Positions 38,649 through 61,986 of a stretch of 64,000 nucleotides of DNA are shown one piece after another. This stretch comes from Azolla caroliniana (Eukaryota > Plantae > Polypodiophyta), in assembly GCA_043228905.1 (NCBI GenBank), contig JBHGNT010000007.1, forward strand, positions 14,136,001 to 14,200,000. Direction: 5' to 3'. How positions within the stretch are numbered: the first letter of the stretch is position 1; each line of letters begins with the position of its first letter. Made by a program: the position numbers and the translations under genes. Below the pieces are notes generated by a model. It searched no databases. It was given only the letters and a program-made list of their open reading frames with translations, and had not been told where the DNA came from.

Positions 38649-41600
38649 TGTCGTGAAGATTTCGGGCCATGGTGAGAAACTGGGGAATATCGGAGGAATC
38701 GGCGGGGTGGAGCATGTGCACTCACCCTTGTACAAATCGTGTAAATGATAGGGGCGCCATCATGGCGCCAGACAGTAGTTAATTCGGGACAGAGGATCCC
38801 ATGTAATAAGGGATTTATCCCACATTGTTACGCATCCCTCTCCTTGTTCTATAAAAGGAAGGGAGCGCCCTTTGTAAAGGGGTTGCCCATTTTGAGTTAG
38901 GAGGGTATATCGTTAGAGTTAGGGTTTCACCTTGGTAGTTTTCTTTCTTTCTTTCTTCTTCTTCTTCTTCGTCATCATGTGGGTTGAGAGTTCGTGTCTA
39001 TTTAGGGTTTGCTTATGTTCGGTCCCCTGTGCAAGACCCCGCTCGGCGCGACGAGCCTGAGAACTCCCCGATCGGCGGCTTGGCAGTAGACTGCTGTTGT
39101 AACCTAACCTACCTAGGTTCGGCTCGAAACTGGGGCTGTATCTTTTCCCTTGTAATATATATACTCATATATGTTTGTGCATATTGATGTATTTGGCAGT
39201 GTCAGGAGCATAGCCCCTTTGTTTCCTGTGCATAAGAGTCGGTGTCGCGTGCATGCTCTTTCTCTCTCCTTCTCTCTCTTTCTCTCTCTCTCTCTCTCTC
39301 GTGTTTGGTTGCCTCTGGGATGTGTCCGGAGTCGGTTTCTCGGTATCCCTTCCTCCCTAGTCCGAGACCCCTGTGGTCCCGCCCTTTTTGACACGCATGT
39401 GCGTAATAACGCGACATTATTTGGTGAACTCGACGTGAAAGGGCGGCAAGGGAGAATGGAGTTGGAAGAAGACGACTTCACCCAACTTTTTGTCGAAGCA
39501 GTGAGGGAGTTTGGACGAGTAACAACAAGGAGAGAGACGACGTAGCTAGTTGTTGAGCAAGTGGTCGAAAGAGTCGGTCGTTTCAACGGGGACAACCTCC
39601 CATTCTACTTGGAAGCCTACAACGCGGAAATGGAGGAGCGAGGCGTAGACGAGGTGTTGAGGCTGGGGTTCTTCTGTTGGGTCGTCACCGTCTGCATGCA
39701 CATGGAAGTGAAGGAGCTGTGAGAAGCTCATAGTTCATGGGAGGCCTTCGAAGAGGCGCTCCTGCAGGCATATGGAGGACGGTGGAAGAGCCGGGGACGA
39801 CACGGCTTCGACCAGTAGGTGGCATCAGTGAAGACCCACCGGGGCGCAACGAAGGCATTCCGAGAGTTTGAGCGACGGCTTGCTCGGCTCCTGGAGCGGG
39901 AGCAAGGTATGGTGGGGGTGGACAAAGCCCTGTTGTTCATTAGGTCGATCGACTGAGCGGAACGGGAGGCCATCGGGATTGAGCTCGAAGACGAGGACGA
40001 AGTGAATGGCCTTATAGAGGACTGGTCGAAGGTCGGAAGGGTATGCCGACGGCTGGATGACGATCGAGCCGAGAAGGCTAGGAGGAAGGCGCGTGATGGC
40101 GCGCCATCACAACGGGAAGAGGTCGAACGGCAAAGAGAGTCGGCAAGGCTCGACTTCAGGGCCAAGATTGCGAAGGCGTATGAAGATCTCGAGGCAATGC
40201 TCGAAGAAGAGGAAAGATCAAGGCCGCAAGCCGACGCCGAGGAGACGGACTTGCCCCACGAGATGGCAGAAGATCGGTATGACAATAGCACGGGAGAGGG
40301 TGCGGAACAAAACACCCTCTCGACTTGCGGAGATAGAACGGCCGAGGACAAGGCCGATATACCGATCGAAGAATCGAAACATTGGGGCCGGCGGTTTCGG
40401 GAACGTCGGCCCGAAACTCTGGACATTGGAGAAGCATGCCCAGGCAGGGCTTGCGTGATCGGGAAGAAAACGGCCACCGACCACAAGGAGCCGGTGGCTA
40501 CGGACAAGGGTGTAAATAGGATGAGTGATTCTACGCGTCTTCTCATGCTTTCTCCCGAGATGATGGCAGTCGGACCTGAGTGCCCACGTGAGTCCCAAGA
40601 GGAGGAAGGCGGCGGCGTGAGACCGAGAATCTCCGGTGAGATGATATGAGGAAGGAATGGACAAGTGCCCTCGGAACCGATTTCGAAGAACTCAACATTC
40701 GGGCCCTTACGCCCACGTGAGACCGAGGAGATGGATGACGGTACCGAGGAGTCTTGGCATGATGCCAACGAAGATGGAGGGGAAATGGCCCACGAGAAGG
40801 TCGATGAAGGGACCAAGAAATGACTTGACCTGGGACCGAACCGCGTGGCACTCCGATTCGGGTGGGGCACGATCCGGTCGTGGATTGTTCAACCGGGGCT
40901 AGAATTGGCATGAAGGTGCCAATACGGGAGAGGGTGCGGAACGAACCACCCTCTTTTACATGGGGAGAAAGACCGACCGGGAAAACGTCGGGAATCAAAA
41001 GGAAGGTGATCAAGGGTTCAGAATGAGCCCGGTAGGATCGTCATCAGAGTCGAAACTCTGGACATTGGAGAATCAAGCCCAAGCGGGGCTTGGTTGATCA
41101 CAGAGCGGATGCTATCCATCCGCTAAAAGGATCGGTGTCCTGGGACGAGTTGTCGGAAGACGTTACGAAATCGGTTACCCACATCTTGTCCGGGGACTTC
41201 GGCAGTTTGGCCGACGTGGCAACGTGAGACCGAAAGAGATGGAAGATGGAGGCGGGAACGCAGCTAGGAGAGCAACGACAAGTCCAGGAGAAGTACAAGG
41301 GACGAAGAGGAGAGCGAAGACCAGTCCTATGGGTCACCTCACACCGGATCTAGAGACCGACGGTCAGCATCGAATCCAACGTAAGACCAGGATACTGACG
41401 GTGGAGGCAGCAGAACGGGACCCGACAATCCAGAGAATGACGAAGGGTCTTGGACAAGAACCGGGTGGAGCGGACTTCTGGATAACCGATCCGGAAGAGG
41501 GGAGAGAGCAGGCCTACAAAGAGGCTGGGAACATGGTACGTCAGTACCACGGGAGAGGGTGTGGAGCGTGCCACCCTCTCGACTTGCAGACAAGGACGAC

Positions 41601-43470
41601 CCGGGATAAGGGTAAGAGATACGACGAGCCAGAGGAGGATCCTTCACACCGGTTCTAGAGACCCCGATGGTCGGTCCAAGAGCCGGCGTGAGACCTAGAG
41701 TGATGAACGATGCGGGCGAGGGGATGAAGGCAAAGGGCTGCAGATGGGCAGTCTACGGAGATCCTCACACCGATCTGGCGGTTGGCCTGAGAGCCAGCGT
41801 GAGTTCTATAGGAGAGATCGGTGGCGACAGGAGAATGTGTTCAATAGAAGAGGTCAGACTACTGCGAGAAGAAAACGGCAAGCGGTGCTGCCGCGACCTT
41901 ACACACACCGGTTCTAGACACTCCAGCGATCGGCCCGAGAGCTGGCGTGAGACCTAGAGTAAGGAACGGTGGTGGCGGCAAGGTGAGCAACCGAAGGCAG
42001 AAGGGGAGGTCCCACGAGATCCTCCCACCGATCCGGTAGTCGGCCTGAGTGCCGGCGTGAGCCCTATAGGAAAGGACGGTGGCGGCAGGTGAATGTGATC
42101 GGACGACGAAGGTATAGTGGCAAGGAGGTATCGGGCTGACGAGGCGGCCACAAACCAAAACTGGACCTTCCAGCAAGGTCGATGGAAGGAAGGGGGAAGA
42201 AGAAAAGGAAAACCGGTCCTACGGGATCCTAACACCAATCCGGAGACACCTGTAGTTCGAGCCGACATGGCAATGTGAGACCGAGTGAGAAGGGTGGTGG
42301 CGGTAGGAAACAGGAACCGGCGATGTAGGAAGTGCAGATGGGCGATCCTACGACGATCCTCACAACCGATCCGGAGACTCCAGCAATCGGCGACGAGAGC
42401 CGGCGTGAGACCTAGAGAGAAGGACGGTGGCAGCAGTAGAACGTGATCGAACGATGGAAAGCAGAGCGAAAGGAGCTATGAGGCCGGCAATGTGGCCACG
42501 AACCAGATACAGTTCCGACGGGTAGAGTTGGCAAGACAAAGGTCGGAAGCGCTTGGTATGAGAGTCAGTGACCCAACAAAATGGAGGCCCGAGAAGGATT
42601 CTTCACACATGCCCGGAGACCCCGACTGTTCGGCCGACGTGGCAATGTGAGACCGAGGGTAATGGAAGATGGCGGCAAGGGGATGAAGGCGGCAACAGGA
42701 GAAGCACTGACCAGCCAAGGCATTATGTGAACGAAGGAGGCCATTGTGAGCCGGTACGCGGCAAGGGTGATCTTCCGGTAAGCTGTCGGGGGACACACCG
42801 GTTAAGGAGCGGTGTGCCGAGCCGGAAGGGGCGCACTCGAAAGCGGAACGGAAGACGTGCGTGTGGCCATCAAGGGCCAAAGCGAAGCACGAGTACGGGA
42901 CGGTGTTTGGCAGAGGCGGTGCCAAACAAGGAAGGCAGAAGACGGTACACGGAGGTGCCGGGAACGAGAACATGTGTGCACGTAAACAGACTACGCGGGA
43001 CGGAGACCGAAAACATGATCAAGGGCTGGATGAGGATCCTCCACGCCCTCTTCAGAGATCTCAGCGGCTCAGTCGGAGTGGCAATGACTATCGTGGTGTG
43101 CCAAACCCGAAGATAACAAGCTGGTGGGGGCGAGGGGATGCCAGTAAGCGGAAGGCTCCATACCGGTGGCAGAAGCGCAAGACGAAAGTGGCCAAGCGGA
43201 CTACTACAGGGTGTTCCTCGGATGTGGAGGACACCAGTATGCGGAGGAGCGGCGATGCACGATCTAGCCGGGCGAGGGCCGACAATGCGTGCATAGGACG
43301 AAACCGGGGTTCGGCACGGGTGGAGCCGAACATGGGAAGGGGAATGCGCGGCGTGCGAAGGTGCCGGAGCGGGAACACCGGCGGGGAGATAGGTTGCCGG
43401 TTCAGGTGATCTCGCATAGAAGGCCAAAGAGGGAACCAACCAATCGTTGTAGCAACAACTTGCACAACTC
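38649..43470 (+). mobile_element. tRNA-Trp-primed Ty3/gypsy-group element F, gag-only (no pol seen), 3' end missing
   Basis: LTR 38649-39416 (TGTCGTGAAG...GCGACA), PBS tggtgaactcgacgtgaa. Degenerate gag homologous to G and H (RFNGDN, GVDKALLFIRSID, IELEDED...NGLIEDW), then about 3 kb of repeat-rich sequence without PR/RT/INT motifs. Right boundary approximate. Confidence 0.8.
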
Positions 43471-44230
43471 ATATCAAGAGAAGTCGGATATATCCCACTT
43501 TAGGATATTCAGCTCAATCGCGTACGTACATATTCCTGATGAGAAGTGGTAGAAGCTCAATCCTAAGTCGGAGAGATGTATCCTCTTAGAGTACTCGCTC
43601 AAACATTTGGGGTATATGTTATTCAACCCCTCTACCAAGAAGGTAGGAGTGAGTAGGGATGTCATATTCGTTGAATCGGCATCCTAGTACATAGTTGAAT
43701 CAACCCCAACCGATCCAATCGAAACTAATTTCCACATAGACTCGGGGGAGGATGATCGACTAAGGCTCACAATAGAGGAAAGTCCAATCTTATCTAGGTT
43801 GAGTGGACCACAGGAGCCCCTGAGTGACCAAAGCACGTCCTGGCCGAGTCTGAAGCAGGACAAAGGAAAGGCCAAAATGCATGAGTACAACGACTCAGAT
43901 GAAAACGAATTGGATCACTCACCCAATAGTGAGTATGTTGGATTGGATGTGCCAATCATGAGGACATTTGGAGCCGAGAAAGTGCTCAGAAAGACAAGCG
44001 AACATCCATGTTGCTCCACCCGAGAGAAGAACATAGTTAGCCGATTCGGTTACAATAATTACATGGCATATCATTATGCATTCATGATGAAGGTGGTGAT
44101 AGTCCAAGAACCGGAAACTTTTTCTGAAGCCGCGAAGGACCGATGATGGGTCGAAGCAATGAATGAGGAGATGCAAGCACTCTCCAAAAATGAGACATGT
44201 GATCTTGTTCCCTCTTCACCCCATCAAAAG
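43471..44230 (+). mobile_element. Ty1/copia internal fragment L (integrase C-terminus to RT start), C-like family
   Basis: IAYVHIPDEK...SRFGYNNYMAYHYAFMMKV...EPETFSEAAKD, near-paralogous to 36650-37350. Confidence 0.85.
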
Positions 44231-46577
44231 TGTAAAAGTTAAGGTGCGGAAGCGTAGACCCAACTGGCTCAGCCGGATAGCAACAGAAAATAGAACCAAA
44301 GGTTTAATGGAAGCTTGAAATTACACAAACGGGGGGGAGACAGAGAGAGCAAAATGTAAACTCTATTTCAAAAATAAACTCAATACTCTGTGCATATAAT
44401 GTGCTCTGTGAACATTTTTATGAAAGATAAGGTGCGGAAGCTAAGACAAAACCGGCTAGTTCGGATAACAACAAAACACAGAACGGAGGTTTAATGGAAA
44501 GCTTGAATACACGGGAGAGACATGGAGAGTAGAATAGTAAAAATTCAATTCAAAATAATAACACTCTGTGAATACAAATGTCTTACATAACACTTTTTAT
44601 ACAAGTCCTTAATAGGACTGACATGTACTTCAATGCTCATACGAGCGACTGACACTACCTCCGAGGAATATGCCTACGTACTAAGCTCGGACCGTAGGCT
44701 CCAATGGCCTACCGGTTCTCACTATTCTGGAGTACGATCCGGTTCTCCGGTCCGGCTCTAGGTTCCAGATACCGATATATCTGAACACCTATCTGGTTCT
44801 CCGTTCCGGATACTGATCCGGCTTTGGCTTACTCAGCCAATCCGAATCTGGTCGACTTTGCCCGCTCAACACCTCCCCTCAAGCTCAACTTGAGATCGGA
44901 TCACTATGTGTGTCCACCAGTTCTCTCCTCCGGCTCCTCCTAGCATCTTCTCGCCTTGCTCGCATGCTCCTTAACCCGTCTGGTCTTGCACACCTCGACC
45001 TTCTCGGTCGACTTGTCTGCTCATAAGGCCCATCTAAGCTCCTTCATTGTTACGACTCCGACGCATCGCGACCCTTCAGTTCCTCTGTGTCAGTGTTGAC
45101 TTCCACTACCTCCTTGTCCATTTGGCCTTCAGTTGATCCGACTCCTCTTCCGGATCGGGTGACTTCAGTTTGTTCCAGCTCTTGTCTGAATTGGATGCAA
45201 GGTTGTTATGTACATTAGGTACGGTACAAATACCATACGTATTTAAAGTATTAATACCCGTATAGTACCTCCCAATTTAAAAATACGTTAAATACGTTTT
45301 CTTAATATGTTAAATACTTATAAAATACGTATTTTACGTATAGTACGTTAAATACTTCTAGAATTTGAAAATTATTTACCTTTCTAAAAAATATCTATAA
45401 TATTGTAAAAAACATCTATGTTTACACAAATTTGTGATGTACAATATAGTTCTACATCCTAAAATGTATATAAGACATTTGAACATTTCACATCCTAAAA
45501 TACTTGTAGTAATATGGATGTTGACATTCCCTTATTCTATAAATTAGTGTAAGTGTGTATCACGATGTTCTACTTCAAATTGTAATTATTTACAATTATG
45601 CCTTCATAGATTGAGGAATCATCTACGGTTATCACACTCATAATAGGTTTCTCTTTTATTTGTTTTCTTCTTCTCTCTTCTTCGATTATCACACTCAAAG
45701 TCAGGACAAGTTTATGTCTTCTTTTCTCTCTTCTTCTTCTTCATCTTCTTCATCGTCGTCTCTTCTATTCTTCTTTCTTCCTTCCTTTGGCTTCTTTTTC
45801 ACTAAAATCTTTTCTTTCTTTTGCTTTTTGTTGGGGTTTTACTTACATTTTCTTTATAAATACGTATTATACCAGTTTTTTTATAAATACGTTGAATACC
45901 ATATTGGACAAATGTACATGATATTTGACTGAACAACATTGAGGTATAGTACGTACTATACAAATGATGAGGTACTATACGTATTTAAACGTTAAATACG
46001 GGTACGTAAACAACCATGATTGGATGTCTACAATTCTTCCTCAATATTCAGGCCCTTTACCACATCGGACTATGTCCGGGTCTTGGCCTTCTCCTTCTGG
46101 TCGGCTCTGTCTTTCTTGACTCTCCCATCATCGCCGTTTGTTCCAACTTGTTCAGACGTGCCGACTTCTTCAGTTGACTCGACATCTTCTTCTTCTTGTC
46201 TCCCTTGTCTCTCCGGTTCTTTGTCTGGTGCCATTACCTGCTTTCCTAGTAACCGTTCCAGTTTCCTCCTTTCTCCCCCTCAAGTGTGGCATGTCGAGAT
46301 GCTGAAGACCAAGCATCTCCGAAAAAAGCTGCAACTTGTCCAGGCCGAGAGGTTTGGTGAAGATGTCAGCAGTTTGTCGATCAATCGAAACATACACAAG
46401 TTCGGCTTCACCGGAGAGGACACGCTCACAGACAAAATGGTAGTGCACCTCAATGTGCTTGGTCTGGGCGTGAAAAATAGGGTTCCTCGCCAGTTGTATG
46501 CTAGTGAGGTTGTCACAGTAGATTGTCATCGAATTAGATACCGCCAACTACAGATCCTTTAGAAGCCTCTTGAGCCA
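44231..46577 (-). mobile_element. 3' part of A-family copia element M (RNase H end, C-terminal extension, PPT, composite 3' LTR)
   Basis: LTR sequence 44231-44871 is reverse-complementary to the A LTR. PPT rc cctcccctcaagctcaa at 44872. [13 protein letters not shown] in ORF 46170-46547. Confidence 0.88.
45198..46018. mobile_element. Non-autonomous hAT-type DNA transposon (821 bp)
   Basis: Perfect 8-bp TSD ATTGGATG (45190-45197 and 46019-46026). Imperfect TIRs CAAGGTTGTT / rc CATGGTTGTT. Subterminal AATACG/TACGTA repeats; AT-rich; no transposase ORF. Confidence 0.88.
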
Positions 46578-47658
46578 TGTTGAGTGGACAAGCTGAACCG
46601 GATCTGGATCGGTTGAATAAGCCATAACTAGATCAGAGTCCAGAATGGAGAACTAAATAGGTATCCGGCACAACAGACCGGATTGTAATCGGTAGGCTGT
46701 TAGAGGCCTACGAATCTAGCCTAGTACGTAGACATATTTTTAGGAGTCAGTGTCGGTTGCTGGTATGAGCATTGAAGTACTTGTCAGTACTTATGTTAGT
46801 CTATGTAAGGACTTGTATAAAAGTGCTCTCTAAGCACATTTTATGTACAGAGCGTTATTATTTTGAATTGAGTTTATATTGTTCTGCTCTCTCTGTCTCT
46901 CCCATCTAAGGTTTCCATTAAACCTGTGTCTATATTCTTTAGCTATCTGGACGAGCCAGTTTTGTCTTAGCTTCCGCGATTGTATTCTTTTACATGGTAT
47001 TAGAGCGTGAGGGTTGAGAACCTTTGCAGCTGACAAGCATTTTCTGAAGACAAACCCTAACACCGGGTAAAGAACACATAGAAGACGCATATGGACTGAG
47101 GAATGGCTAGCTTGCTCCCGACAGAGAAGCTCGACAGATCCAACTACGCATCTTGGTAGTACAAGATGCACCAGTACCTGCTTGAGCATGACTACTAGAG
47201 TTATGTTGACGGAGCAATGATATGACACCTGATGTGGCACATAGGGACTTCCCGACTTGGGAACAAACGGCAACCAAAGTTATGTACTGTGTTGCGTCCA
47301 GTGTCGGTGATAAACTACTGAGCCATATCCGGGATGCCAAGACGTCGAAAGAAGCTTGGGGAAACCTGGAGAAGGTCTTCACCGCAAGCACCACGACCCG
47401 GAAGTTACAACTTCGACTAGAGTTGAGCAATGTCTAACAAAAGGACATGTTGGTGGCCAACTATATGGCCCGGATCAAAGCCATTTGTGATTCACATGCC
47501 TCTATCAATGTGACCGTTGAGGAAGATGAGATGGTGCAGGTTTGTCTCGCTGGCATAACGTCAAAGTTCGGAGTATTCTGGACAATGGTCTGTACAAAGG
47601 AGAATACACCCTTGTTTTTTGACTTACAGTCGATGCTCCTAGTATAGGAGAACCACGC
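46578..47658 (+). mobile_element. A-family copia element N (5' LTR and gag only)
   Basis: LTR 46578-46994 similar to the A LTR, PBS tggtattagagc, gag EKLDRSNYASW...FFDLQSMLLV; cut by LTR J. Confidence 0.9.
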
Positions 47659-48152: not shown

Positions 48153-49124
48153 CTTACACCATTGTAAACACAAAATTTTACAAGGCTTTAGTCTTGTTTT
48201 TACAAATGTTTAACTACATATTACATCTTCAGTTGACATCCAATGAACTGATGGAACCGTTGTCGAGATATTACGCAAGTGCGTGTGGAAACGAGGCGGG
48301 ACCGCGGGGGTCTCGAACCAAAGAGCAAGCGAGGGAGGAGAAAGAGAGAAAACCGGCTACGCAGGACCGAGGATACACAGGGACACGGCCCTTCAGCACA
48401 GAGAACGCGAACAGACACCGACACAGACAGATGCGAATGACTAAATATGTATATTAACAAAATGGCTAACACGACTACAACCCTCGATGGGGCACAGGTT
48501 GGCTACAACCGAACAGGCCGGCGAACAGATGCCGATGCCTGTTCGCTTCGACGCGCAAAGGGGGCAGCAGGTCGGAGGTGCTGCCGAAAGCACTCGGGCG
48601 TTCCTCGAAACAGCGCGAGCCTCCTCGGAACCCTGCACAGAAAAGCTATGGAGCTCAAGAAGGAAGGAAACAGAGAGAGAAGCGTCCAGAAACGGTCCGG
48701 CAGCACTTCCTCCTCTCTGCGCGAGATGCCTGCAACAGCTCTTTCCTGCTCCTTATATAGGCCGACGAGCAGGCCGTCATGTCAACTTTATTCCCTGTCC
48801 CTTTCGAACAGGGATTCGCTCCGTTCTTCACGCATCCGCGTAGTTACGCCGCCGACTCGTACAGTTCCTTAGCTCGCGCGCGCGACCGAAAAGACTGTTC
48901 GCGCGGTCTTTGTCTCCACTTGTGTTAGGGCCCGTTCCTGCCGATTATCCTCCTAATTCGCTTCTATGTACAACTTGGAGCGTGCGCGCGTGAAGAACCG
49001 GTTCCCACGCCTTGGTGCGCCGATTCCGCTTATGGACGGTTTTCTTCACGACATCCGCCCCCACCTAACCGCGCATCCTCCGGTATGCGCCAAGAGAGTT
49101 GGGACGGAGAAAACCGGCCCGTCT

Positions 49125-52100
49125 TCATTCCTCGCCCGTTGGTTCTTCCTCGTTTTCGGATCGTTCGTCACTGCTGACTAGGAGTGTCGGGTCTGGCTCG
49201 TCGTCGTGTCGCTTCTTGAACGCCTTGATCCGCTTCCCTGCAACCGGTATCGCCATTCTCGTGCCGTCGAGTTCCGCCAGGTGATATGTCCCGTTGTCAT
49301 TGGCGCTCCGTACCACGTAAGGCCCGAACCACCTTCGTGCGAACTTCCGTGTAGCTCGGTGCTGGTTGTCGAGGCTGCTGTCGTAGACGAGCACCCAGTC
49401 ACCTTCCTCGATTTTCTTCGGTCGGGGCCGGTGCGTTCGGTCGAACCTGGCTTTGTTCTTTGTCCTCGCCACCCGGAGCTTCTCCGCAGCCAGTTCCACG
49501 TCCTCCGGTCTCCGCTCGAGCTGTCGTATACGCGCGGCCAACAACTCCTCCCGGCTCATCTCGTCCCTCCAGTCGACCGTTGCCCACGAGGAGATCGTCT
49601 GTTCCATCGGCATGATCGGCTTCTGGCCGAACATGAGCTCCGTCGGCATGTACCCGGTTACCGAACTGTGCGTGGTCCGGTCTGCCCACAAAGCATAAGG
49701 TAGCAGCCGCGGCCAGTTACCGACTCGGCCTCCGCATGCCCGAACCAACGCCTTGGCGATCGGCCCGTGTCCGCGCTCCACCTTTCCATTCGCCTCCGGA
49801 TTGTACGCAGTGGTGAGCGAGAGCTTAACTCCCAGCCGGTCGAACAGCTCCGCGGCTTCTTCGGCGTCCAACTCCCCTCGGTCAGCCACGATCTTCCCGA
49901 TGCACCCGTACCGGCATATCACGTCCTCGATTAGGAACCGACATACGGCCGCGGTCGTTTTGTTCGGAAGGACCCGGCCTTCCACCTGGTTCGTCAGATC
50001 CTCCCGCGCTAGGACCAAGTACCGCATCTGTCCTACCCCCATTGGCATCGTCACCAGATCTACCATCCATTTGAAGTGGATGGTCGGAGGGTACGTAGGG
50101 TGAAGCTCGTCCCGGTGTCGGACCACGGAGTGCATCTGACAGCTCTCGCAAGTTGTCACGAATCGATGCACGTCCCGGTACAGTCCCGGCCACCAGTACT
50201 TCTCCTTTATCTTCTCGAACGTGGCCCAAGTTCCACGGTGTCCGGCCCAAGGGCTGTCGTGGTAGGCCGTCAGCAGCTCCTCCTGTTCCTCCTTCATCGC
50301 CACCACCCGGAGCGGAGCGCCGTCCCTCTTCTTCGGGTGCTTCCATAGATAGCCATCCCGGAGAAAGAACCGGTACGCTTTCTTCCGGATCCGGTTGGCC
50401 TCGTCTTTCATCCATGACGCATCCGGCGCCATTGTCCTCAAGAACCCGCCGATCTGCAGCCACTCCCCGTCGTACTTGCTCGCGTCGAAGTCGTTAAGCG
50501 CCGGAGTGCTCGTCCCGTCGGTTGTTACGTATGCTGCCTCGAAGAAGTCCACGCCGACCTCTTCGTCCTCCGAAACCATGCCGCCCTTGTCATCGAACCT
50601 CGCCCTCGAAAGCATGTCGGCCATGGCGTTGTCTTTCCCGGAAATGTGTCGTATTTCTGGGTCCAGGGACTTGATGTACGCTATCCACCTGAGCATTGCC
50701 AGGTCCGGCGTCGCGCATCCGGAAACGATGCCGAGAATCGGCATGCAATCCGTCTCTATGATTACCTCTGTCCCGATCAGATAGTCCTTGTCGGCCTTCA
50801 CCGCCGAAACGATACCCCAGAGTTCGCGTTTAACCTGGGCGTATCCTCGCTGCCGCTCACTGAGGACCTTCGCGCCGAATCGGATCGGAAACCGATTGCC
50901 GTCCTCGTCTTCTTGGTTGACAACCCACCCGATTCCGGTCGGACTCGTGTCAACCGTTATGTACACTGGGGTGCCCTTCCTGTAGACGGCCTTTCGGAGC
51001 GCCGGTGCTGCCGAAAGAGCCTCCTTCAGCTTCCGGACCGACTCCGTGTGCTTGTCTAGCCATTCGAATCTTCGCCCTTTCTTCAATAATCCGTACAGCG
51101 GCTCCGCGACGTGCGCGTAATGCGGGATCCATATGTGGTAGAAGGCGCATGCTCCCAAGAATCTTCGTACTTCCGTGACCGAGCTGCAATCAGGCTTCAT
51201 CGCGGAGATGGCTTCTACCTTTGCCGGAGACGGTTTCCGGCCATATGGTCCACATAAATGTCTCCCCCGAGAAGGTGAGCCTCGCATCCTCTAGCTTTTG
51301 CAGCACCTTCTCGCAGTCGTCGATGTGCGTCATCACGAATCGCCGGCATCCGTCTGGCCCGATCGTCTCGTCCTTCTCTTCTACCGGGCATCCCTTGATC
51401 GGGATGTCGTCTAGAAACGGCATGGTGATGTCCGGGATGCAGTCCCTCAGCACCTTGTTCATTGCATTCACCATGTGGGCCACTGAGTTGGTCCCTCCTT
51501 GCGGCAGCGTACACATCCGCACTAGGCCGAGGGGAGTTCGCATCGTCGTAATGTCTCTGCTCTCCACGGCTAGCTGGAACTGGTCGTACCCTGAGTATAG
51601 ATCACCGACCGAGTAAATCGACCTTCCGGCGAAGGCCTCCGCGAACTCGTCTATGGTCGGTCCGATCCCTGCGTTCCGAATGGTCACTCTGTTGACCGGC
51701 TGCAGGTCCTGAATGAAGCGCAACGATCCGTTTTTCTTTGGTACGGTAAACCATCGGTTTGAATATGGGGCGCTCGACGGCTCGAGAATGCCCATATCAA
51801 CTTTCTGCTTCAACAGCTCCATCAACTTCGGGATGTGAGCTCTCGGAACCGGAATTGGCTTGAGATTCCACGGTACATGCGGCACCGTGAATATCACCAT
51901 TGGCTCTACGATCGTCGGGTCTACGCACCCGATTTCCTCCGGTGAGAATGCGAAGGCTTTCCCGTGCCTTCCGAGCATTCTCCAAAACCGGTCTTCCTCC
52001 ACCGGCAGTAGGAACCCGCCCCCACCGATCTTCAGTTCGCGGAGCGTCTCGTTGGTGAAGGTGTGTCCTATGCAGGCCGGATCTCGTAAGCTGGGGTCCG

Positions 52101-52575
52101 ATGCAACCCCTTTGATTCGGGATTCGCTGCCCTCCGGTAAGGGCGCCGCAACTGGCCTCACCTTCCGGTCCACAACCTTGTACTTGGTGCTAACTCGGGC
52201 CGTCCGTTCCGACTCGAGCCCTCGACCGAAGTCCGCGATGACTTCGTACATTTCTTCGGAACACGCCGGTATCGTCCGGTCTTCGTTAAGGCCTTCTTCG
52301 ACTACCTTCCCCAGCATCCCCAAGGTGTCGTCGAAGGAGACTGCCTCCACGGCTCCGTCGATTTCTTCGTCAGGGCCGAGAACTCCGCACGCCCGAAGTC
52401 TCCCCTCCGTCTTTGTTTTCTCTCGGCCGGCGATGCCGACCATCGTACATGCTCCGCTGTCGGAGAAGCAAAATTTCCTACCTATTGTACACGGTTTTAT
52501 CGTACAGATGTGGGGTTTTCCCGGAGCATCCGGACTGTCGCGGCCCCACGCCTTGGCAGTCCTCTCTAAAAATCC
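49125..52575 (-). pseudogene. pol (RT-RNase H-integrase) of element G, one internal deletion/frameshift near 51260
   Basis: RT IQDLQPVN, DLYSGYDQ, LPQG, FLDD; RNase H; integrase HHCC (H...GHRG...CESC), DDE core and GPY motif; no chromodomain. Confidence 0.92.
52510..52575 (-). promoter_or_regulatory. Predicted -1 programmed ribosomal frameshift signal (slippery G GAU UUU plus pseudoknot)
   Basis: Heptamer 52575-52569 directly before the gag-PR stop, 6-nt spacer, stem 1 GGACUG/CAGUCC, loop GUGGGG pairing with downstream CCCCAC. The -1 frame is open into RT. Confidence 0.75.
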
Positions 52576-53696
52576 TCTCGGTTTTCGGAACCGAGGGAGT
52601 CGCGGTTACGTTCGTGGTTCGGCCGTACCGTCAGAAACTGGACCGAATGGCGCCCGTCTTGGCTTTTGACCCTCGCGTAGGCCAAACCATTGTCCAGCAC
52701 CTTGGTCTCCATTCGTGCCGCCGTGATGTACGGCTCTCCCAGTATGACCGGATGCGAAGACGTCTCCTGCACGAAGAAGTGCTGGTCAATCTCGACGTCG
52801 CCGATCTTGACTCGCACATTCGGACAGGCCCCGTGCAGTTCCTCGGTGGCGCGCGTTGCTGCCCTTATTTTCCACCCGTGCTTGGTGTTGATCGGCCATT
52901 TGCCCTTCTTATAGAAGTCCATGGACATCAAATTGATCTCCGATCCGTGGTCCACCAAAGCTATCACCGGTTCCTGGACATCGCCGATCTTCACCGGGGT
53001 TTCCGTGGTCGCTCGGGCCCAGTGTGGTCTCGAATAGTGGCTTTCCGCCCACTCGTCCCCCAGCGCCATGTCGTCTAGGTGCGTCGTCCGCACTTCCACC
53101 GGTTTTTCCGGTTCTGTCTCCGTTGACAGCCTCTTCCGTTGTCGTGCCTTTCGGCTCCGGATCGTTTGCGTGAGTCGGGTGGGAACCACTGGGGTTTTGG
53201 ACTAGGAGAAAGAAGAATATGAGATGAGGCTAGTAATGGATAGGTATAAAGAGTTATAAGATAAGAATCTCGTGAATCCCACGAGTTTAGTATATTTAGT
53301 CAATATTTAGGTAGTAAGAGAGAATTATTTTTAGCAAATTCGTGAATCCCACGAATATTTTAGATTGATTGATCATTATAGAAAAATAATCAACAAAAAC
53401 TACAATGTGCTCCCCATCCTTATATAGTGATGGGAGAGACTAAGCATAGCTACATGCTTTTTCTAATATGTTCATGCACACTAAATGTGCATGTGATGCT
53501 TTTCTAATCCTTGCTTTGATTTGCTAAATATAGTGCTCATGCACGCTAGATGTGCATGAGTCACTTTTTAGTTGCTTGCGTTTTTCTATAAAATATTCAC
53601 GCACTCTAAATATACATGATTTACCTTTTAATAAAGGTAGGCGCAAATAAAGCACTTATAATTATTAAATCTATTTATAGAACACTAAAGATAAGG

Positions 53697-53750
53697 TAGC
53701 ATAATGGTAAAGTTGGGGTTTGGCTACGTGGAGGTACAAGGTTCAAATCT
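53697..53750 (+). promoter_or_regulatory. tRNA-like A-box/B-box module in H LTR (second copy 56339-56392)
   Basis: TAGCATAATGG fits TRGCNNARYGG; GGTTCAAATCT fits the B box; spacing 44 nt, as in tRNA genes. Confidence 0.6.
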
Positions 53751-53815
53751 TGCCCTATGCACGTGATAAATATCTTGATATTCTTATTTTATTTATTTAT
53801 ATGTAATTAAATCGG

Positions 53816-55744
53816 TTATATTATTTTTACTTTTTCACGTAGTGTACGAAATACACTACGACACTCGCCCCCTCCGAACCCGCACATCCTCCGGTATGTG
53901 CCGAAGTTGCCGATGCTCGTTGTCTCCCCTTCATCCTCCGTTTGTCCCGCTATGTCAACTTTGTCTCTCCATTTTGAGTAGACCCATTCTTTCCACCCGA
54001 ACCATTGTCGCCATCCGATCCACCATATTCTTTGTTCTCTCTCGTCATATTCTTGGCCCTTGTCATTCGTGGTAGTGTCTTTTACTGGCCTCTTTGTTGT
54101 CTTCATCAACCTTGACTTTTTTCCGGATCGCTCTCGTCCGATCGACTTTCGGTTTGATCGGCTTCCGATCGGATTCGTATTCGGCCGAATCGGAATCGGT
54201 TGTTCGCTTTCGATTGAGTCGGTCTCCTTCCGGCCCGGTTTCGATCTATCGGTTTTGGTTTCGGTTGGCTTTCTTTTCCTCGTTTTCACCGGCCTCGACC
54301 GGTCCCACCTCCGATTGAGTCGGATTAGCTTCTTTCCGGATCCGTCTCGTCCGATTGGCTTTCGGCTAGGTTGGCTTCCATCCATATTCGCGTTCGGCCA
54401 AGTCAGACTCGGTCGATCGGTTTTGACCGAGTCGACCCCTTTTCGGGTCGGCTTTCTTTCGGATCGGAATCCCGTCCGGATCACCTTCCATCCAAACCGG
54501 CTTCCGACTTTACCTTTCTTGCTGCCACCTCCCGTCTCTCCGGTCTCACGTTGGTTCTCGGACACAACTGCCGAAGTCTCTAGAATTAGTGGGTAGGAAT
54601 CCTCGGTATTATCATCCTCCATTGTTTCACCCATAGCCATATTCTCGGCTATCTCTCCATCGTATGCATCGACTTCGACCTTTGTTTTCTCTCCGCCACC
54701 TTCCGTCTCTTCGGTCTCACGTTGCCTTTCGAATGCAACCGCCGGAGTCTCTAGAATTAGTGGTGGGGAAGTCTCGATATGGCCATCCGTCGTTGATTCG
54801 TCCATAGTCACCTTCAATTCGATGTCATCTTTCATGGTGACCTCCTCAATCAAGTCCTCCTTGCTCTCTTTCACTGCATCAATTATGCAAACATCAATTA
54901 TGCTTACCCCTTTTTCACCCGATGTTTCGGACACTTGTATTCCGAAATCTTCTTCTACACTTGGGTTATCGGCCTTATCCTTTGTCGTTGTTCTTTCGCA
55001 AGACAAGAGGGTAGCTTGTTTTACACCCTCTTCCGTCGGACCATCATGTTGTATTTCGGCCTTCATATCGGCTCCATCGTTTGTCTTCAATCGACCATCC
55101 TTCATTGGCCATGTCGTTGACAAGATTCTCATCTTCCTCTCATCATGTCTCCGGCATACCCTTTGGACTTCGGCCCAATCTTCAGTAAGACCATTTGTAC
55201 CTTCATCGTCTTCGAGTTCAATCCCGATGTCCTTCCTTTCTTTTCGATCGATCGATTTTACGAACATTAGGACTTTATCCTCCCCCACCAATCGTTGTTC
55301 CCGCTCCGAGAGTCGAGCAAGACGATGCTCGAACTCTAGGAATGCTTGTGTTGCACTTTGGTGGGTCTTCTCCGATGCCACCCATTCATCGAACTCTCGC
55401 CGATCTCGTCCCTTCGGTCTATCGTAATCATATGCCTCTCGTAAAGCTCCTTCAAAGGACCCCCATGTTGGGTTTTGTTGTTGTATCTTGTAGATTCTTT
55501 CTTGTAACTCATCCGTGGCTACCCGATTGAAGGATGTCACTTGCAATCCTTCTGGTATCCCACATCGTATCATCTCCGCCTTGTAGTCACGTAGATAGCG
55601 TGACACATCGTTTCCGTTGAATTGTCCGTTTCGTTGTACGAGCCGCTTTACTACCGCCGTGATCTCCGACATCGCTCGTTGTTCTTGTAGCATCCGTTCG
55701 AACATCATCATCATCATGTTCATCGCCTCTTGTTGATTCTCCAT
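53816..55744 (-). CDS. Intact Gag-like ORF of element H (about 642 aa from the first ATG) with long acidic/basic tail
   Basis: N-terminal about 220 aa align by eye with G Gag (FNGNDVSRYL / FDGKDATRYL, VLMFVKSID / VLLFVKSVD, GLTEDW / GLTTDW). No stops; the stop codon lies inside the 3' LTR. Confidence 0.8.
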   Translation of the reverse strand: MENQQEAMNMMMMMFERMLQEQRAMSEITAVVKRLVQRNGQFNGNDVSRYLRDYKAEMIRCGIPEGLQVTSFNRVATDELQERIYKIQQQNPTWGSFEGALREAYDYDRPKGRDRREFDEWVASEKTHQSATQAFLEFEHRLARLSEREQRLVGEDKVLMFVKSIDRKERKDIGIELEDDEGTNGLTEDWAEVQRVCRRHDERKMRILSTTWPMKDGRLKTNDGADMKAEIQHDGPTEEGVKQATLLSCERTTTKDKADNPSVEEDFGIQVSETSGEKGVSIIDVCIIDAVKESKEDLIEEVTMKDDIELKVTMDESTTDGHIETSPPLILETPAVAFERQRETEETEGGGEKTKVEVDAYDGEIAENMAMGETMEDDNTEDSYPLILETSAVVSENQRETGETGGGSKKGKVGSRFGWKVIRTGFRSERKPTRKGVDSVKTDRPSLTWPNANMDGSQPSRKPIGRDGSGKKLIRLNRRWDRSRPVKTRKRKPTETKTDRSKPGRKETDSIESEQPIPIRPNTNPIGSRSNRKSIGRERSGKKSRLMKTTKRPVKDTTTNDKGQEYDEREQRIWWIGWRQWFGWKEWVYSKWRDKVDIAGQTEDEGETTSIGNFGTYRRMCGFGGGECRSVFRTLREKVKII

Positions 55745-58700
55745 CCCCTTGCCACCCGTCTTCACGTCGGGTTCACCAACTGTGTCGTGCCTTTCGGCTC
55801 CGGATCGTTGCGTGAGTCAGGTGGGAACCGCTGGGGTTTTGGACTAGGAGAAAGAAGAATATGAGATGAGGCTAGTAATGGATAGGTATAAAGAGTTATA
55901 AGATAAGAATCTCGTGAATCCCACGAGTTTAGTATATTTAGTCAATATTTAGGTAGTAAGAGAGAATTATTTTTAGCAAATTCGTGAATCCCACGAATAT
56001 TTTAGATTGATTGATCATTATAGAAAAATAATCAACAAAAACTACAACGTGCTCCCCATCCTTATATAGTGATGGGAGAGACTAAGCATAGCTACATGCT
56101 TTTTCTAATATGTTCATGCACACTAAATGTGCATGTGATGCTTTTCTAATCCTTGCTTTGATTTGCTAAATATAGTGCTCATGCACGCTAGATGTGCATG
56201 AGTCACTTTTTAGTTGCTTGCGTTTTTCTATAAAATATTCACGCACTCTAAATATACATGATTTACCTTTTAATAAAGGTAGGCGCAAATAAAGCACTTA
56301 TAATTATTAAATCTATTTATAGAACACTAAAGATAAGGTAGCATAATGGTAAAGTTGGGGTTTGGCTACGTGGAGGTACAAGGTTCAAATCTTGCCCTAT
56401 GCACGTGATAAATATCTTGATATTCTTATTTTATTTATTTATATGTAATTAAATCGGTTATATTATTTTTACTTTTTCACGTAGTGTACGAAATACACTA
56501 CGACACCGTTTCACCAAGTCCACGATGGAGTCGTGGAACTCCTTCTTGGCGATTCCCAGCACCTCTCGTAACGACAACTCCACCTTGCTGTCGAGGATCC
56601 GTTCCTCTAGGACCTTTCGTAAGTCCGTGGTCCTTTCTATCTCCGTCCCCAGACGGTACCCGCCCTTCTGGGGTTTACCTTGCGTACCGGCACCGCCGGC
56701 TTCGTCCCGTCGTGGCCCGGACCGGGTCTCGTATCGTTGTGAGGGCCCGGTCGTCCCGGGTTTCCCCACCCGCTTCTCTTCTACCAGAGCCTCGTAGTTC
56801 TGGCAAGCGGCTTCCACGAAGCCCGTCTTTTCCTCGACCGGGTCGCTCCACCCGGTCATCTCCCGTACCCGTTTCTCCGCACGGTCCGATTCCTCCCTTT
56901 TAAGCCTTGCACCGGCAAGGCCTTCCAGCATCGTCGGCCAGAATCCGGCTTTGCTTTCCCTTCGGGCCTCGCCGCCCCCGACTCGAATGCCGGCCGACGC
57001 CGAGTAGTGGACGGTTTCCGCGTGTCGGGCCGCCGCCTCTTCCATCAACCTTTTCATACCACCTCGCCCGTCGTTTCGGCTCAGGGCCCTTCGGGTGTCG
57101 CTGGCATGCACCCGTCCTTCCCACAGGTACACCACCCTGTTCCTCAGCGCCTCCGCGAAGTCGCCACAGTCCTTCCGAATGTGGCCGACTTCATCGCACC
57201 ACATGCACCTGTTTCCTGCCGCCGGCCGTCGGTCACGAGCCGGTTCGCCACCTTCCCTTCGGGCTTGCGCGATTTGGAGGTCCTTTATCGCCCTCGTCAA
57301 TTCCTCCAGCGCCGCTCCTCCGGTTGAGCCTCTGACTACGCCGGTCGAAGCCGAACCGGTTTCCAACCACTCTCGGGTCTCTTCCTTTCGCACCTGTGGC
57401 GCTGGTTCGAGCTTCCTTGCTGCGACCGAGCCCGACCCGGTTGCCCCGTTATCCGCCCATTCTCGCCGTTTGTCGAAACGGCCACAGACTTTCTTGACAG
57501 CCGCCCAGTCGGTAGTGAGCCCGTCTTCGGTTTCAAGCAAGAGGCCCACTTGCTCCCGATCCCGCTCGTCGACCGACTTGACAAACAGCAAGACCCGGCT
57601 CGTGTCCAGGATGGTTCGGTCGAGCGCCGAAAGGCGCGCAAAGTTTTCCTCGAACTCCCGGAGGAGTGCCGACGCGTTTCTTCCCTTCCCCGGGGACTCC
57701 ACCCATTCCATGAACCTTCGCTTCAAAAGCCGGAGCGCGTCGTCCAGCCCGTATCTCTCTAGGAGCCGACCTTCGAACTCCTCCCAGGTACGGCTCTCCG
57801 CCCGCACCTCGAGCACCTCCGCATGGATGCTCGGCATCGCCACTCGGGGAAATCCGGCAAGACGCCTTTCTTCCGGAATGTCCCGCATCAGCATCTCTGC
57901 ACCGTAGGACGCCAAATACCTCGTGGCATCCTTCCCATCGAACCGGCTGATCGTGCCGACGACCGCCTCAATAGCTTTGTCGAGGGCACCGGTGCCCTCG
58001 CGCGCGTTTACAATCCGATCCACGGCCGAAGCCATGGCCTCTGCAAGATCCGACCCCCTCATCTTCTGCTCTTCTGCCGCCTCCTTCACGTCGGGTTCAC
58101 CAAAGATGTCGAGATATTACGCAAGTGCGTGTGGAAACGAGGCGGGACCGCGGGGGTCTCGAACCAAAGAGCAAGCGAGGGAGGAGAAAGAGAGAAAACC
58201 GGCTACGCAGGACCGGGGATACACAGGGACACGGCCCTTCAGCACGGAGAACGCGAACAGACACCGACACAGACAGATGCGAATGACTAAATATGTATAT
58301 TAACAAAATGGCTAACACGACTACAACCCTCGATGGGGCACAGGTTGGCTACAACCGAACAGGCCGGCAAACAGATGCCGATGCCTGTTCGCTTCGACGC
58401 GCAAAGGGGGCAGCAGGTCGGAGGTGCTGCCGGAAGCACTCGGGCGTTCCTCGAAACAGCGCGAGCCTCCTCAGAACCCTACACAGAAAAGCTATGGAGC
58501 TCAAGAAGGAAGGAAACAGAGAGAGAAGCGTCCAGAAACGGTCCGGCAGCACTTCCTCCTCTCTGCGCGAGATGCCTGCAACAGCTCTTTCCTGCTCCTT
58601 ATATAGGCCGACGAGCAGGCCGTCATGTCAACTTTATTCCCTGTCCCTTTCGAACAGGGATCCGCTCCGTTCTTCACGCATCCGCGTAGTTACGCCGCCG

Positions 58701-59005
58701 ACTCGTACAGTTCCTTAGCTCGCGCGCGCGACCGAAAAGACTGTTCGCGCGGTCTTTGTCTCCACTTGTGTTAGGGCCCGTTCCTGCCGATTATCCTCCT
58801 AATTTGCTTCTATGTACAACTTGGAGCGTGCGCGCGTGAAGAACCGGTTCCCACGCCTTGGTGCGCCGATTCTGCTTATGGACGGTTTTCTTCACGACAC
58901 CGTTAGACAATTTTGTTCGTTTCACACCGAAAATCTTCAAGATACCGTGCCTTGCGATCAACCTATTCAACCGACCCGACACTGGAAACCGGCAAGAAAA
59001 GACAT

Positions 59006-60152
59006 TGTCGTGATGTTTCTAACACGCAGTGTGAAACCACCCTCGAAAAGAAGCCAAATATCAATTTAAATAAACTAGTATTGTGAAGTCAACTTTATTG
59101 GTAGGCAAAATACTTTTTCATTTTGCCAAAGATAATTCCTTATAAATAAAAGGTCAAAGGATTGAACCTTACAATAAATAATGATGAATATTAAGTTAGA
59201 GGCGGTTTTCAAAAGTAGAGAAAAAGATGGAGAGAAAAAAAAAACACGCGTGGATATGATGAGTATGGTAGAGAAATAAGCTCATAATTTCCTCGTCAGA
59301 TGTCCAAATTAGAAAATAAAATATGCATAAGAAAGCTAACCCAAAGAGCTTTCCAAGAATATCTTGCATGTGAAATTTGGGGCTAGAAAACAGAAATAAT
59401 GAGGAAAAGAAAAGTTGACTCATATAGACAAGCTTTTTTTTAGGGGAAAAAGGCAATCGATCCTAAACCTATAAATAAGAGCCTATTCTAGTGAAGAAGT
59501 GGGGGAGGGAGAAGGAACACGGAAGCTCTAGTCAATTGGAAGGCAAAAGAAGAAGGATCAACAACATCGAGAGGCATCATCAACAAAGAATCACCTTCTT
59601 CTATATTCCACTCTCTTCTTTCCTCCACCTCTCATCCCCCATTCCTTTATAAACAAACAATCCTTCATATTCACATCCAACCTATTGTAACATGATTCTT
59701 ATATTATAAAAGAATCGATTATTTTGATATAAACTAATGCTTTCTTTCATCTACTTGTCTTATGTGTAAATCTTGATTGTGTTGTGCGTGTGAGCTCTAA
59801 TTCCTTCCAGTCCATAACCCCAACAGTTCCGCCTCACAATCCGCGCATAGTGACAGGTATTTCACAACATAATTAAGTGGTGAACCTGACGCGAAGAGGT
59901 GGTAGGAAGGATTCAAGTGCTTGCAATAGAAGATTAGAAGATGGCTTCTTCGACAAACACCCAAGCTGATGAAGTGGCGAAGTTGGTGGCTATTGTCGAG
60001 CGAATGATGAGAGCCCGAGATAATGATTCAAGATTAGACAAGGCCATCAATTGGACTGTTGAGATAGCGGGCCAATTTGGTGGAAGAAATATTACAAATA
60101 TCCTCGCCATATACAAGACAGAGATGCAACAACGAGATGTCATCGAAGAGAA
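59006..60152 (+). mobile_element. tRNA-Trp-group element I (5' LTR and gag start, truncated)
   Basis: LTR 59006-59869 (TGTCGTGA...TCACAACA), TATA at about 59470, decayed PBS tggtgaacctgacgcgaa at 59878. gag MASSTNTQ...RLDKAI...QFGGRNITNIL homologous to G Gag. Confidence 0.85.
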
Positions 60153-61193
60153 AAGGGGTGTGGAGATCGGTCGGCATTCCGTCATGCCAAACTTGTACAA
60201 CATATTCAGCACATAGTGTCTTTGTGAGAGCAATATGTGGTCAGGGGTCTGGATCACCTCGATCCCAAGAAAATAATGAAGGTCCCCCAAGTCCTTCATT
60301 TCAAATGCGTTCGATAACTAGGACTTCACTCTACCAATTTCAACGAGTCTGGGTTCGGTGATGACTAAATCATCTACATACTGGATGAACAGTGAAGAGT
60401 CGGACTTTGAGGCTGCAAACCCCATCTTACACAATTGGTGCATGATCTTCACATTCCAAGCTCGGGGGGCTTGGTTCAGACTGTAAAGCGACTTCTTGAG
60501 TTGGCACACTGCCGACTTGTTCATCTCCAATTGGAAACTAGGGGGTTGGATCATATAGACCCGTTCTTCAAGGTCACCTTGAAGAAATGCATTCTTCACG
60601 TCCATTTGGTGAAGGTGCCACCCCCTTGCTACAACAACTGCCAGCACCACACGAACCGTCGTCATCTTCGCTACCAAAGTGAAGGTCTCGTCGTAGTCGA
60701 TTTCGTGGGTCTGTGCGTATCCCTTTGCCACTAACGGAGCCTTGTACTGGTTGACTGAAGCATCGGCATTGTACTTCACCGTATATACCCACTTACAACC
60801 GATTGGTTTACACTGTCGAGGAGGGTCAACCAGGTCCCAAGTGTCATTGGCATCGAGTGCCCGCATTTCTTCTTCCATAGAAGCACGCCAATTTGCGTCT
60901 TTCGCTACTTCTACATAGCTCTCTGGCTCACACACTTCTGTCATCTTGGTCATGTACACATAGTGATGTGCCATGTACTCATTGTATCCGTACCATTTTA
61001 CAAGGTTCTTTTGGCAGGTTGACCGACACAACTTTTCGTGAGCCGGTTTGAGGCCTTTCTTGGCCGGTTCAGATTTCGTTTCTAAAGATCCGACTTCGTT
61101 CTTCCGAAGTCAGAATCCCTCTGATCTTACTCTACATTGTCAGTGTCGTATTCTGACATCTTTCTCTTCCCCTTCTCTTTGCGCATGAACCGT

Positions 61194-61986
61194 TGTTGCG
61201 TTGTTACGCGCGTGCGTGTCGAAAGGGCGGGACCACGGGGGTCTCGAACGAGGGAGAAAGGGATGCCGAGAAAACCGACTCCGGGCGCGACCCGGACGCA
61301 ACTGAACACAAGAGAGAGAGAGAGAGAGAAGAGCGAGAGAGAGCATGCACGCGACACCGACTCTTATACACACAGGAAATAAGGAAAAGAAACGCACCCG
61401 ACACTAGCAGAGACACAAATATGCTCAACCCGTTATATATATGATTACAAGAGTGAGTTACAACTCCGGCTCCGAGCTGGACTGAGGTAGGCTAGGTCAC
61501 ATCAGCAGTTTGCCGCCAAGCCGCCGTCGGGGAGCTCTCGGGCTCGTCGTGCTGAGCGGGGTCTTGCACAGGAGGCCGAGTAGAAGTAAACCCCCACAGA
61601 ACATACAAGTTCTTCACCGGGCTAAAACCCTAAACGGACACGAAGGGGCTGAAGAAGAAGAGGAAGAAGAAAAAACGAAACCCTAAACGAAATAGGGTGA
61701 AGACCAAAGTGGAAACCCTAAGGGAACAAGAATAAGATGAAGAGGAAGAACTCTACCAAACCCTAGACCTAAGTGGTATACCCTCCTAACTCAAAATGGG
61801 CAACCCTTCATAAGTGACCCCTCCCTTCCTTTTATAGCCCAAGGAGGGAGGGACCTTACAATGTGGGATAAAATTTCCCCTCTTATTTCTATACATCATT
61901 TCCTAGGAAACATGGGCACATGTTGTACACCACCGATTTGCCCATTCCACCCCGGTTTCACACCGTAGCCGGAAATCTTCACGACA
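61194..61986 (-). mobile_element. Solo LTR of the F family inserted in K
   Basis: Reverse complement starts TGTCGTGAAGATTT and ends CGCAACA, similar to the F LTR. 4-bp TSD CCGT on both sides; K reading PRRRFM is restored on removal. Confidence 0.92.

Follow-up and report, generated by a model that had tools for sequence, protein, structure and literature searches.

The closest described counterpart of the element analyzed here is the Ty3/gypsy lineage Phygy, for which Neumann et al. (2019) give an NCGN target duplication, a primer site for tRNA-Trp and an ORF organisation entered as 'ND' in the lineage table of PMC6317226. In that table, overlapping frames at the junction of protease (PR) and reverse transcriptase (RT) prevail in no lineage. 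A 2016 review (PMC5009743), in its summary of a 2003 survey, names just two kinds of plant retroelement whose gag and pol frames are separate, and both are +1. In the literature covered, which is mostly open-access and includes the 2003 survey by way of the review, no PR-RT frameshift or pseudoknot is described for Phygy, for bryophyte elements or for any plant retroelement, and the accessible portions of PMC7466625 and PMC11963269 contain nothing on recoding.

The window studied here is a stretch of 64,000 nucleotides from the fern Azolla caroliniana (contig JBHGNT010000007.1, positions 14,136,001 to 14,200,000). It contains a Phygy-type Ty3/gypsy element whose PR-RT junction we interpret, with a probability of roughly 0.88 on the strength of comparative sequence evidence, as a programmed -1 frameshift cassette composed of the heptamer G GAU UUU, a UAG stop and, starting 6 nt past the heptamer, a predicted pseudoknot. 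The junction feature is real and conserved; that it is functional is likely.

The retrotransposon and its PR-RT junction

The junction sits in an LTR retrotransposon of Ty3/gypsy type that bears the hallmarks of Phygy and lies on the minus strand. Its two LTRs (5' LTR, 58107..58899; 3' LTR, 48261..49053) are 793 nt long, agree at 783 of 792 positions and are flanked on both sides by the 4-bp target duplication ACGG (58903-58900 and 48260-48257), which has the NCGN form. The primer-binding site at 58086..58102 matches the complement of the tRNA-Trp 3' end, and the motif complementary to it was found in the host tRNA-Trp(CCA) genes at 4/4 loci scanned. The domains follow the order GAG-PROT-RT-RH-INT, with neither a chromodomain nor an extra domain in a Pfam scan. 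The nearest named proteins are predicted proteins of Physcomitrium patens (61-67% identity), and named homologues also come from the liverworts Riccia and Calypogeia and from the fern Adiantum.

The Gag-PR ORF has its first ATG at 58062, and its 5' part (56506..58062, with a weak DUF4100 match) is severed from its 3' part (52566..53139, recognized as aspartic protease by ORF and Pfam) by a nested gag-only LTR element at 53140..56505, which has an ACGG duplication and a tRNA-Trp primer site of its own and lies outside the frameshift signal. This nested element, with near-identical LTRs (within 53140-56505, minus strand), probably represents a non-autonomous passenger from the lineage of its host element. 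The -1 frame (51190..52605) comprises a linker of about 130 codons followed by RT and comes to an end past a private gap near 51260 that changes the frame and in which 38 nt are missing relative to 27/29 sister copies; the RT end, RNase H and integrase make up the remaining pol at 49125..51290. The nested element in gag and the gap in RT render the window copy defective, a point absent from the first-pass annotation of this DNA.

The same host genome holds 63 matches in total to the tRNA-Trp 3' motif, with clusters at C8:17796786-17823371 (spacing about 1.2 kb), C16:4989495-5105657 and C5:10105608-10112201, and the four scanned tRNA-Trp genes lie outside these clusters; the primer tRNA of the Phygy-type lineage may have been amplified in arrays. 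Elsewhere in the window there is a related gag-like remnant with internal repeats (39700-43500, plus strand), a piece resembling the LTR end of the window family (61226-61263) and a different gypsy element (13770-17948, plus strand) with a tail that looks chromodomain-like by eye, in which a single in-frame stop at 14511-14513 parts the gag and protease frames, a case either of readthrough or of decay. ORF translations also mark copia-like remnants at 25726-27885, 34526-36796, 43688-47433 and 59934-60317.

The first-pass annotation had placed a heptamer, a 6-nt spacer and two stems between protease and RT, and all are present in the sequence of the minus strand from 52575 to 52510. The slippery heptamer G GAU UUU (52569..52575) is in phase with the upstream ORF, which ends ...EDF, and conforms to X XXY YYZ if G GA is tolerated in the first position. 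The spacer UAGAGA (52563..52568) contains the Gag-PR stop UAG (52566-52568). In the predicted pseudoknot, stem 1 pairs GGACUG (52557..52562) with CAGUCC (52532..52537), as suggested by folding and covariation, and stem 2 pairs GUGGGG (52544..52549), which sits in the stem 1 loop, with CCCCAC (52510..52515), as suggested by a tail-swap test described below. In the window family and its close relatives a small hairpin, CCGGA/UCCGG (52534-52522, minus strand), shares bases with the 3' side of stem 1 and might form at the expense of the predicted pseudoknot.

The frame terminated by UAG has a weak aspartic-protease match (Pfam gag-asp_proteas, E 0.002, below the curated cut-off), while the -1 frame, which had been described as open into RT, indeed bears RVT_1 (Pfam, E 4e-10) within 52605-51190. 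Ten codons before the heptamer, the -1 frame of the window copy is closed, which confines any shift to about 40 nt. Taken alone, the structure in the window is not striking in comparison with chance: plain MFE folding, a method that cannot fold pseudoknots, returns a z-score of -0.95, which is not significant; an equally good two-stem score is reached at 166/8880 other element positions (1.9%); the tail of stem 2 has no pairing advantage over shuffled tails (32 of 200); and Rfam gives no relevant match (one chance hit, E 5.8). The junction is the top scorer among the 14 slippery-like heptamers of the window element. It is conservation and covariation across families that lend the real support.

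Conservation of the frame break and of the predicted structure

The 21-nt junction has 318 exact matches in its own genome (reversed control, 0), and the register is kept in 30/30 of the loci first examined, with UAG as the stop in 28. The own-genome examination covered the best-scoring 150 of 7407 candidates, and 90 loci were fetched, which left 82 distinct copies once 8 duplicates had been dropped. RT lies in the -1 frame in 78 of them (77 with an open linker) and in +1 in 3, and one copy has no RT hit; in the protease frame RT was found in 0/81 copies with an RT hit. With RT in -1 in 78/82 copies and in frame in none, the break is not a private indel. Copies retrieved with a distant protein query have RT in -1 in 28/30 cases, and copies that are uninterrupted carry gag plus PR in a single open frame, mostly of 709-787 codons.

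The same arrangement is evident in more distant relatives, of which 80 metagenome loci were recovered (protease identity 61-99%; 79/80 from one assembly series); a scan of viral contigs for relatives returned none. The stop of the PR frame is reached in 78/80 loci and, counting backwards from the stop with no heptamer filter, is directly preceded by GGAUUUU in 60 and by GGAUUUC in 3, or 63/78. Nine different amino acids precede DF in these relatives, and their codon ends in G every time, against a background of 691/2530 for G at third codon positions. RT hits in 58 loci fall in -1 in 51, in frame 0 in 3 and in +1 in 4. In the -1 loci the frame downstream of the site is open, with no conserved start, and the linker is stop-free in 51/51, where frame 0 has 2-15 stops; the length of the open linker ranges from 121 to 156 codons across relatives. 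The 3 frame-0 loci contain stops in frame 0, and none of the 58 loci with an RT hit has a stop-free PR-RT frame. Two of the four +1 loci are decayed and two, L109 and L110, are intact. Among homologous proteins 56/120 end exactly in DF, with variable tail length, and this ending is also frequent in more distant representative proteins; a frameshift signal at the end of Gag-PR would explain why predicted proteins end in DF so often. At two metagenome loci (L112:2908-2979 and L140:935-1006) the Gag-PR stop is shifted into stem 1 and the proteins end DFxxxPL, an ending also seen in predicted proteins of P. patens and Adiantum (P0099, P0107, P0264).

Grouping 53 of the 58 RT-hit loci, those with an open linker, gave 23 clusters. 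Their representatives were chosen with a heptamer-like filter, so that heptamer counts among them are partly built in; the 63/78 count is unaffected. The codon after the heptamer is UAG in 9 clusters, UAA in 7 and UGA in 3, with a later stop in 4. In 21 clusters, placed all over the RT tree, the break falls at this motif and is followed by a long open frame. The tree was built from metagenome relatives only, leaves out L077, L105 and L112 (short RT), has no outgroup and is weak in its backbone.

The family alignment recommended in the first-pass annotation shows the frame break, the heptamer, the spacer and the two stems retained in the 23 clusters, with compensatory changes. MAFFT, which is blind to structure, aligns the clusters nearly gap-free; the stem 1 core spans columns 14-44, begins 6 nt past the heptamer and has its 5' strand in the same columns in 23/23 clusters. 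Both sides change in 9/12 stem 1 pairs, amounting to 28 cells versus 13.0 +/- 3.4 in shuffled alignments (0 of 500), and 79.7% of stem 1 cells pair versus 28-41% in slid controls; the window family carries G-C where most other clusters have A-U. For stem 2, loops with their own tails reach -11.4 kcal/mol versus -9.5 kcal/mol with swapped tails (3 of 100000 permutations), with several G-rich stem-2 loops, that of the window included, not individually significant. The two-stem score puts the site within the top 3% of locus positions in 22/23 clusters, L077 being the one that fails. These shuffle counts are not probabilities, since the structure was picked after the sequences had been seen and the 23 clusters are related, and they are inflated by that kinship, by the post hoc choice and by the origin of 79/80 loci in one assembly series. 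Stem 1 also overlaps coding sequence (R-T/A-I...N/D-S-P), and protein constraint may add to its conservation. A predicted structure that could act as stimulator is found a few nucleotides past the heptamer, with covariation.

Together, the fixed break, the in-phase G GAU UU(U/C), the compensatory changes in stem 1 and the pairing of stem 2 with its own partner make programmed -1 frameshifting between PR and RT likely. Under this reading, most translation would terminate the Gag-PR frame at G GAU UUU UAG. The predicted H-type pseudoknot, which the RNA would have to adopt in vivo, would stall ribosomes from 6 nt downstream, and the tRNAs on GAU and UUU would slip in tandem and re-pair on GGA and UUU, so that a minority of ribosomes, set back by one base, would continue into RT-RNase H-integrase. 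Gag-PR would be the major product and Gag-PR-RT-RH-IN the minor one, and the frameshift would set the ratio of enzymes to capsid while leaving one protease per Gag.

Other routes from protease to RT have to be weighed against this. Splicing in the manner of Ogre could join Gag-PR or an upstream exon to RT with UUUUUAG as the 3' splice site: some Ogre transcripts have the stretch that parts GAG-PROT from RT spliced out as an intron (PMC6317226, in the passage on Ogre), the window has UUUUUAG and the sister family of L109 and L110 has UUUUUGACUAG|G. We regard this as very improbable, given that the acceptor-like UAG stands right behind the U run in just 9/23 clusters, that the linker is coding and that the reads lack joints. 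An AG is missing from the spacer in 4/23 clusters, and the linker stays open in the RT frame in 51/51 -1 loci, which an intron would not need; the site is spanned, at low depth, by 143 poly(A) reads (two runs of a relative), none with a joint, the RNA reads as a whole being thin in coverage and drawn from relatives mostly 90-95% alike. The open linker and the joint-free reads, low in depth as these are, do not describe the non-coding spacer or intron of an Ogre-type element, and the pseudoknot would be left unexplained by splicing. Separate translation of Pol, through reinitiation or internal initiation at an AUG past the Gag-PR stop and perhaps aided by structure, appears just as improbable. 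The window does have such an AUG in the RT frame downstream of the stop (MVGIAG), and a pseudoknot follows the gag stop in Candida Tca2, where its role is questioned (PMC2194720); reinitiation is nonetheless disfavoured by the position of the first in-frame AUG, which varies from codon 3 to codon 111 across the 23 clusters while the open frame reaches back as far as the heptamer wherever the AUG lies, and no in-phase G GAU UUU would be needed.

The break might instead be an inherited defect, with a master element of a single ORF mobilising the copies in trans. Many copies, including that of the window, are broken elsewhere, and among the best 150 of 7407 candidates two own-genome copies have longer open frames, of 954 and 1040 codons. 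Against it stand the 21 clusters over the RT tree in which the break comes with the same motif and leads into a long open frame, and the fused young copies that the first-pass annotation had named as its own disproof do not appear at any locus with an RT hit, be it own-genome (81) or metagenome (58); the idea of a single-ORF master is already largely refuted, and we give it an even smaller chance than splicing. The same very small chance falls to readthrough of the stop in the manner of MuLV and to polymerase slippage. A stop followed by a pseudoknot does resemble gammaretroviral readthrough, and in Retand one stop separates PROT from RT (PMC6317226, passage on that lineage). Readthrough cannot reach RT here, since RT lies in another frame than the stop; more stops follow in frame 0, and all three stop codons are used. 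The U run is merely 4-5 long, no extra-base reads at it are listed among the 143 low-depth reads of the relative, and the stem keeps a fixed, ribosome-compatible distance, all of which speaks against polymerase slippage.

A sister family in the -2/+1 register

The intact loci L109 (2498-2569) and L110 (2836-2907) read CAG GUU UUU (U/G)AC UAG, are 76% identical over 1.2 kb and form a clade at 100/100 in the RT tree. Long open frames flank their junction in the -2/+1 register, and a strong predicted pseudoknot is kept behind a spacer of 5 nt. This sister motif has 95 matches in the window's own genome (at loci including L171-L190 and L218-L247), with RT in -2/+1 at 17/20 of the loci examined. 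A query that excludes the junction gave -2/+1 for 25/30 sister copies (23 with an open linker), other frames with stops for 3 and no RT for 2. RG GUU UUU is in phase and is followed by an ORF in -2/+1, an arrangement fixed among copies, and in most of them the -1 frame has a stop immediately behind the site. A contig from another run crosses the sister junction without a gap. RNA reads of the sister family number 4, 4 and 0, too few to inform on the junction, which none of them crosses. In the liverwort Calypogeia fissa a homologue known from its protein alone (P0227) ends VFY, like the -2/+1 family.

From these sequences the sister family is a candidate for a structure-driven -2 frameshift, in a register that DNA renders identically for -2 and +1; a +1 shift, or splicing at UUUUUGACUAG|G, are candidates too. 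We infer that the sister register was derived from -1, going by the distribution of clusters (18 to 2) in a tree without outgroup. We lean, at slightly better than even odds, toward a broader proposal: that the whole Phygy-type clade, in mosses, liverworts and ferns alike, relies on a single conserved post-protease frameshift pseudoknot to express RT-integrase, and that in one sub-lineage alive today the cassette went from -1 to -2 when G GAU UUU became AG GUU UUU and the 6-nt spacer shrank to 5 nt. If true, a retroelement would depend on a natural -2 frameshift driven by RNA structure, and evolution would have put the mRNA-tension model to the test, in that the post-slip A-site codon would end 7 nt before stem 1 in both registers. 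Spacers 1-2 nt shorter favour -2 slips in vitro (PMC3458567), and the -1 and -2/+1 sister families in one genome would provide a natural test of that finding.

Comparison with known systems

With this analysis the Phygy lineage would gain an expression mechanism concrete enough to test, together with about 20 naturally occurring versions of a compact predicted frameshift pseudoknot. Annotation pipelines probably treat such elements as defective or bridge the site with invented introns, to judge from predicted proteins that run through it.

Like Phygy, the window element has the NCGN duplication, the tRNA-Trp primer, no chromodomain match and no extra ORF. It differs in that the organisation listed as 'ND' in PMC6317226 is here GAG-PROT overlapping RT-RH-INT in -1, in that homologous protein ends of the window family also occur in liverworts and a fern, and in size: without the nested element the window copy, which has a deletion, measures about 7.3 kb, below the 7656-9968 bp published for Phygy from P. 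patens only. The Tat elements Ogre and Retand likewise have a polyprotein split between protease and RT, with a spacer or intron at the split in Ogre and a single in-frame stop in Retand (PMC6317226, relevant rows). The frameshift reading of the first-pass annotation is supported, with one correction: a split of this kind is nothing unusual in plants as such, as Ogre and Retand have GAG-PROT / RT-RH-INT.

Among viruses, MMTV and HTLV share a -1 shift between pro and pol (PMC5009743, passage on retroviruses). They need two shifts, so that their protease is sub-stoichiometric, whereas the window family has gag and PR in one frame. In Rous sarcoma virus the protease may be encoded at the end of Gag, which would make its layout the closest, though the review passage words it otherwise. 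Its gag-pol frameshift likewise has a pseudoknot as stimulator (PMC5009743, same passage). The earlier statement that G GAU UUU works in plant RNA viruses is borne out by the relevant part of that review, in which G_GA is accepted in umbraviruses and dianthoviruses and G_GAU_UUU is the site of pea enation mosaic virus; these viruses have the identical heptamer with a stop close behind, and differ in using a bulged stem-loop with long-range pairing rather than the compact local H-type pseudoknot predicted for the window family. The sister family, with AG GUU UUU, RT in -2 and, in most copies, a -1 stop directly behind, resembles the -2/-1 site GG GUU UUU of the arterivirus PRRSV, which has no RNA structure at the site and needs nsp1beta and PCBP (PMC4937337), where the sister family keeps a predicted pseudoknot 5 nt downstream. 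The proposed -1 shift is a known mechanism, new in its position and in its lineage; as a bridge between PR and RT it appears to be undescribed in plants, and the candidate -2 offshoot is the more surprising part.
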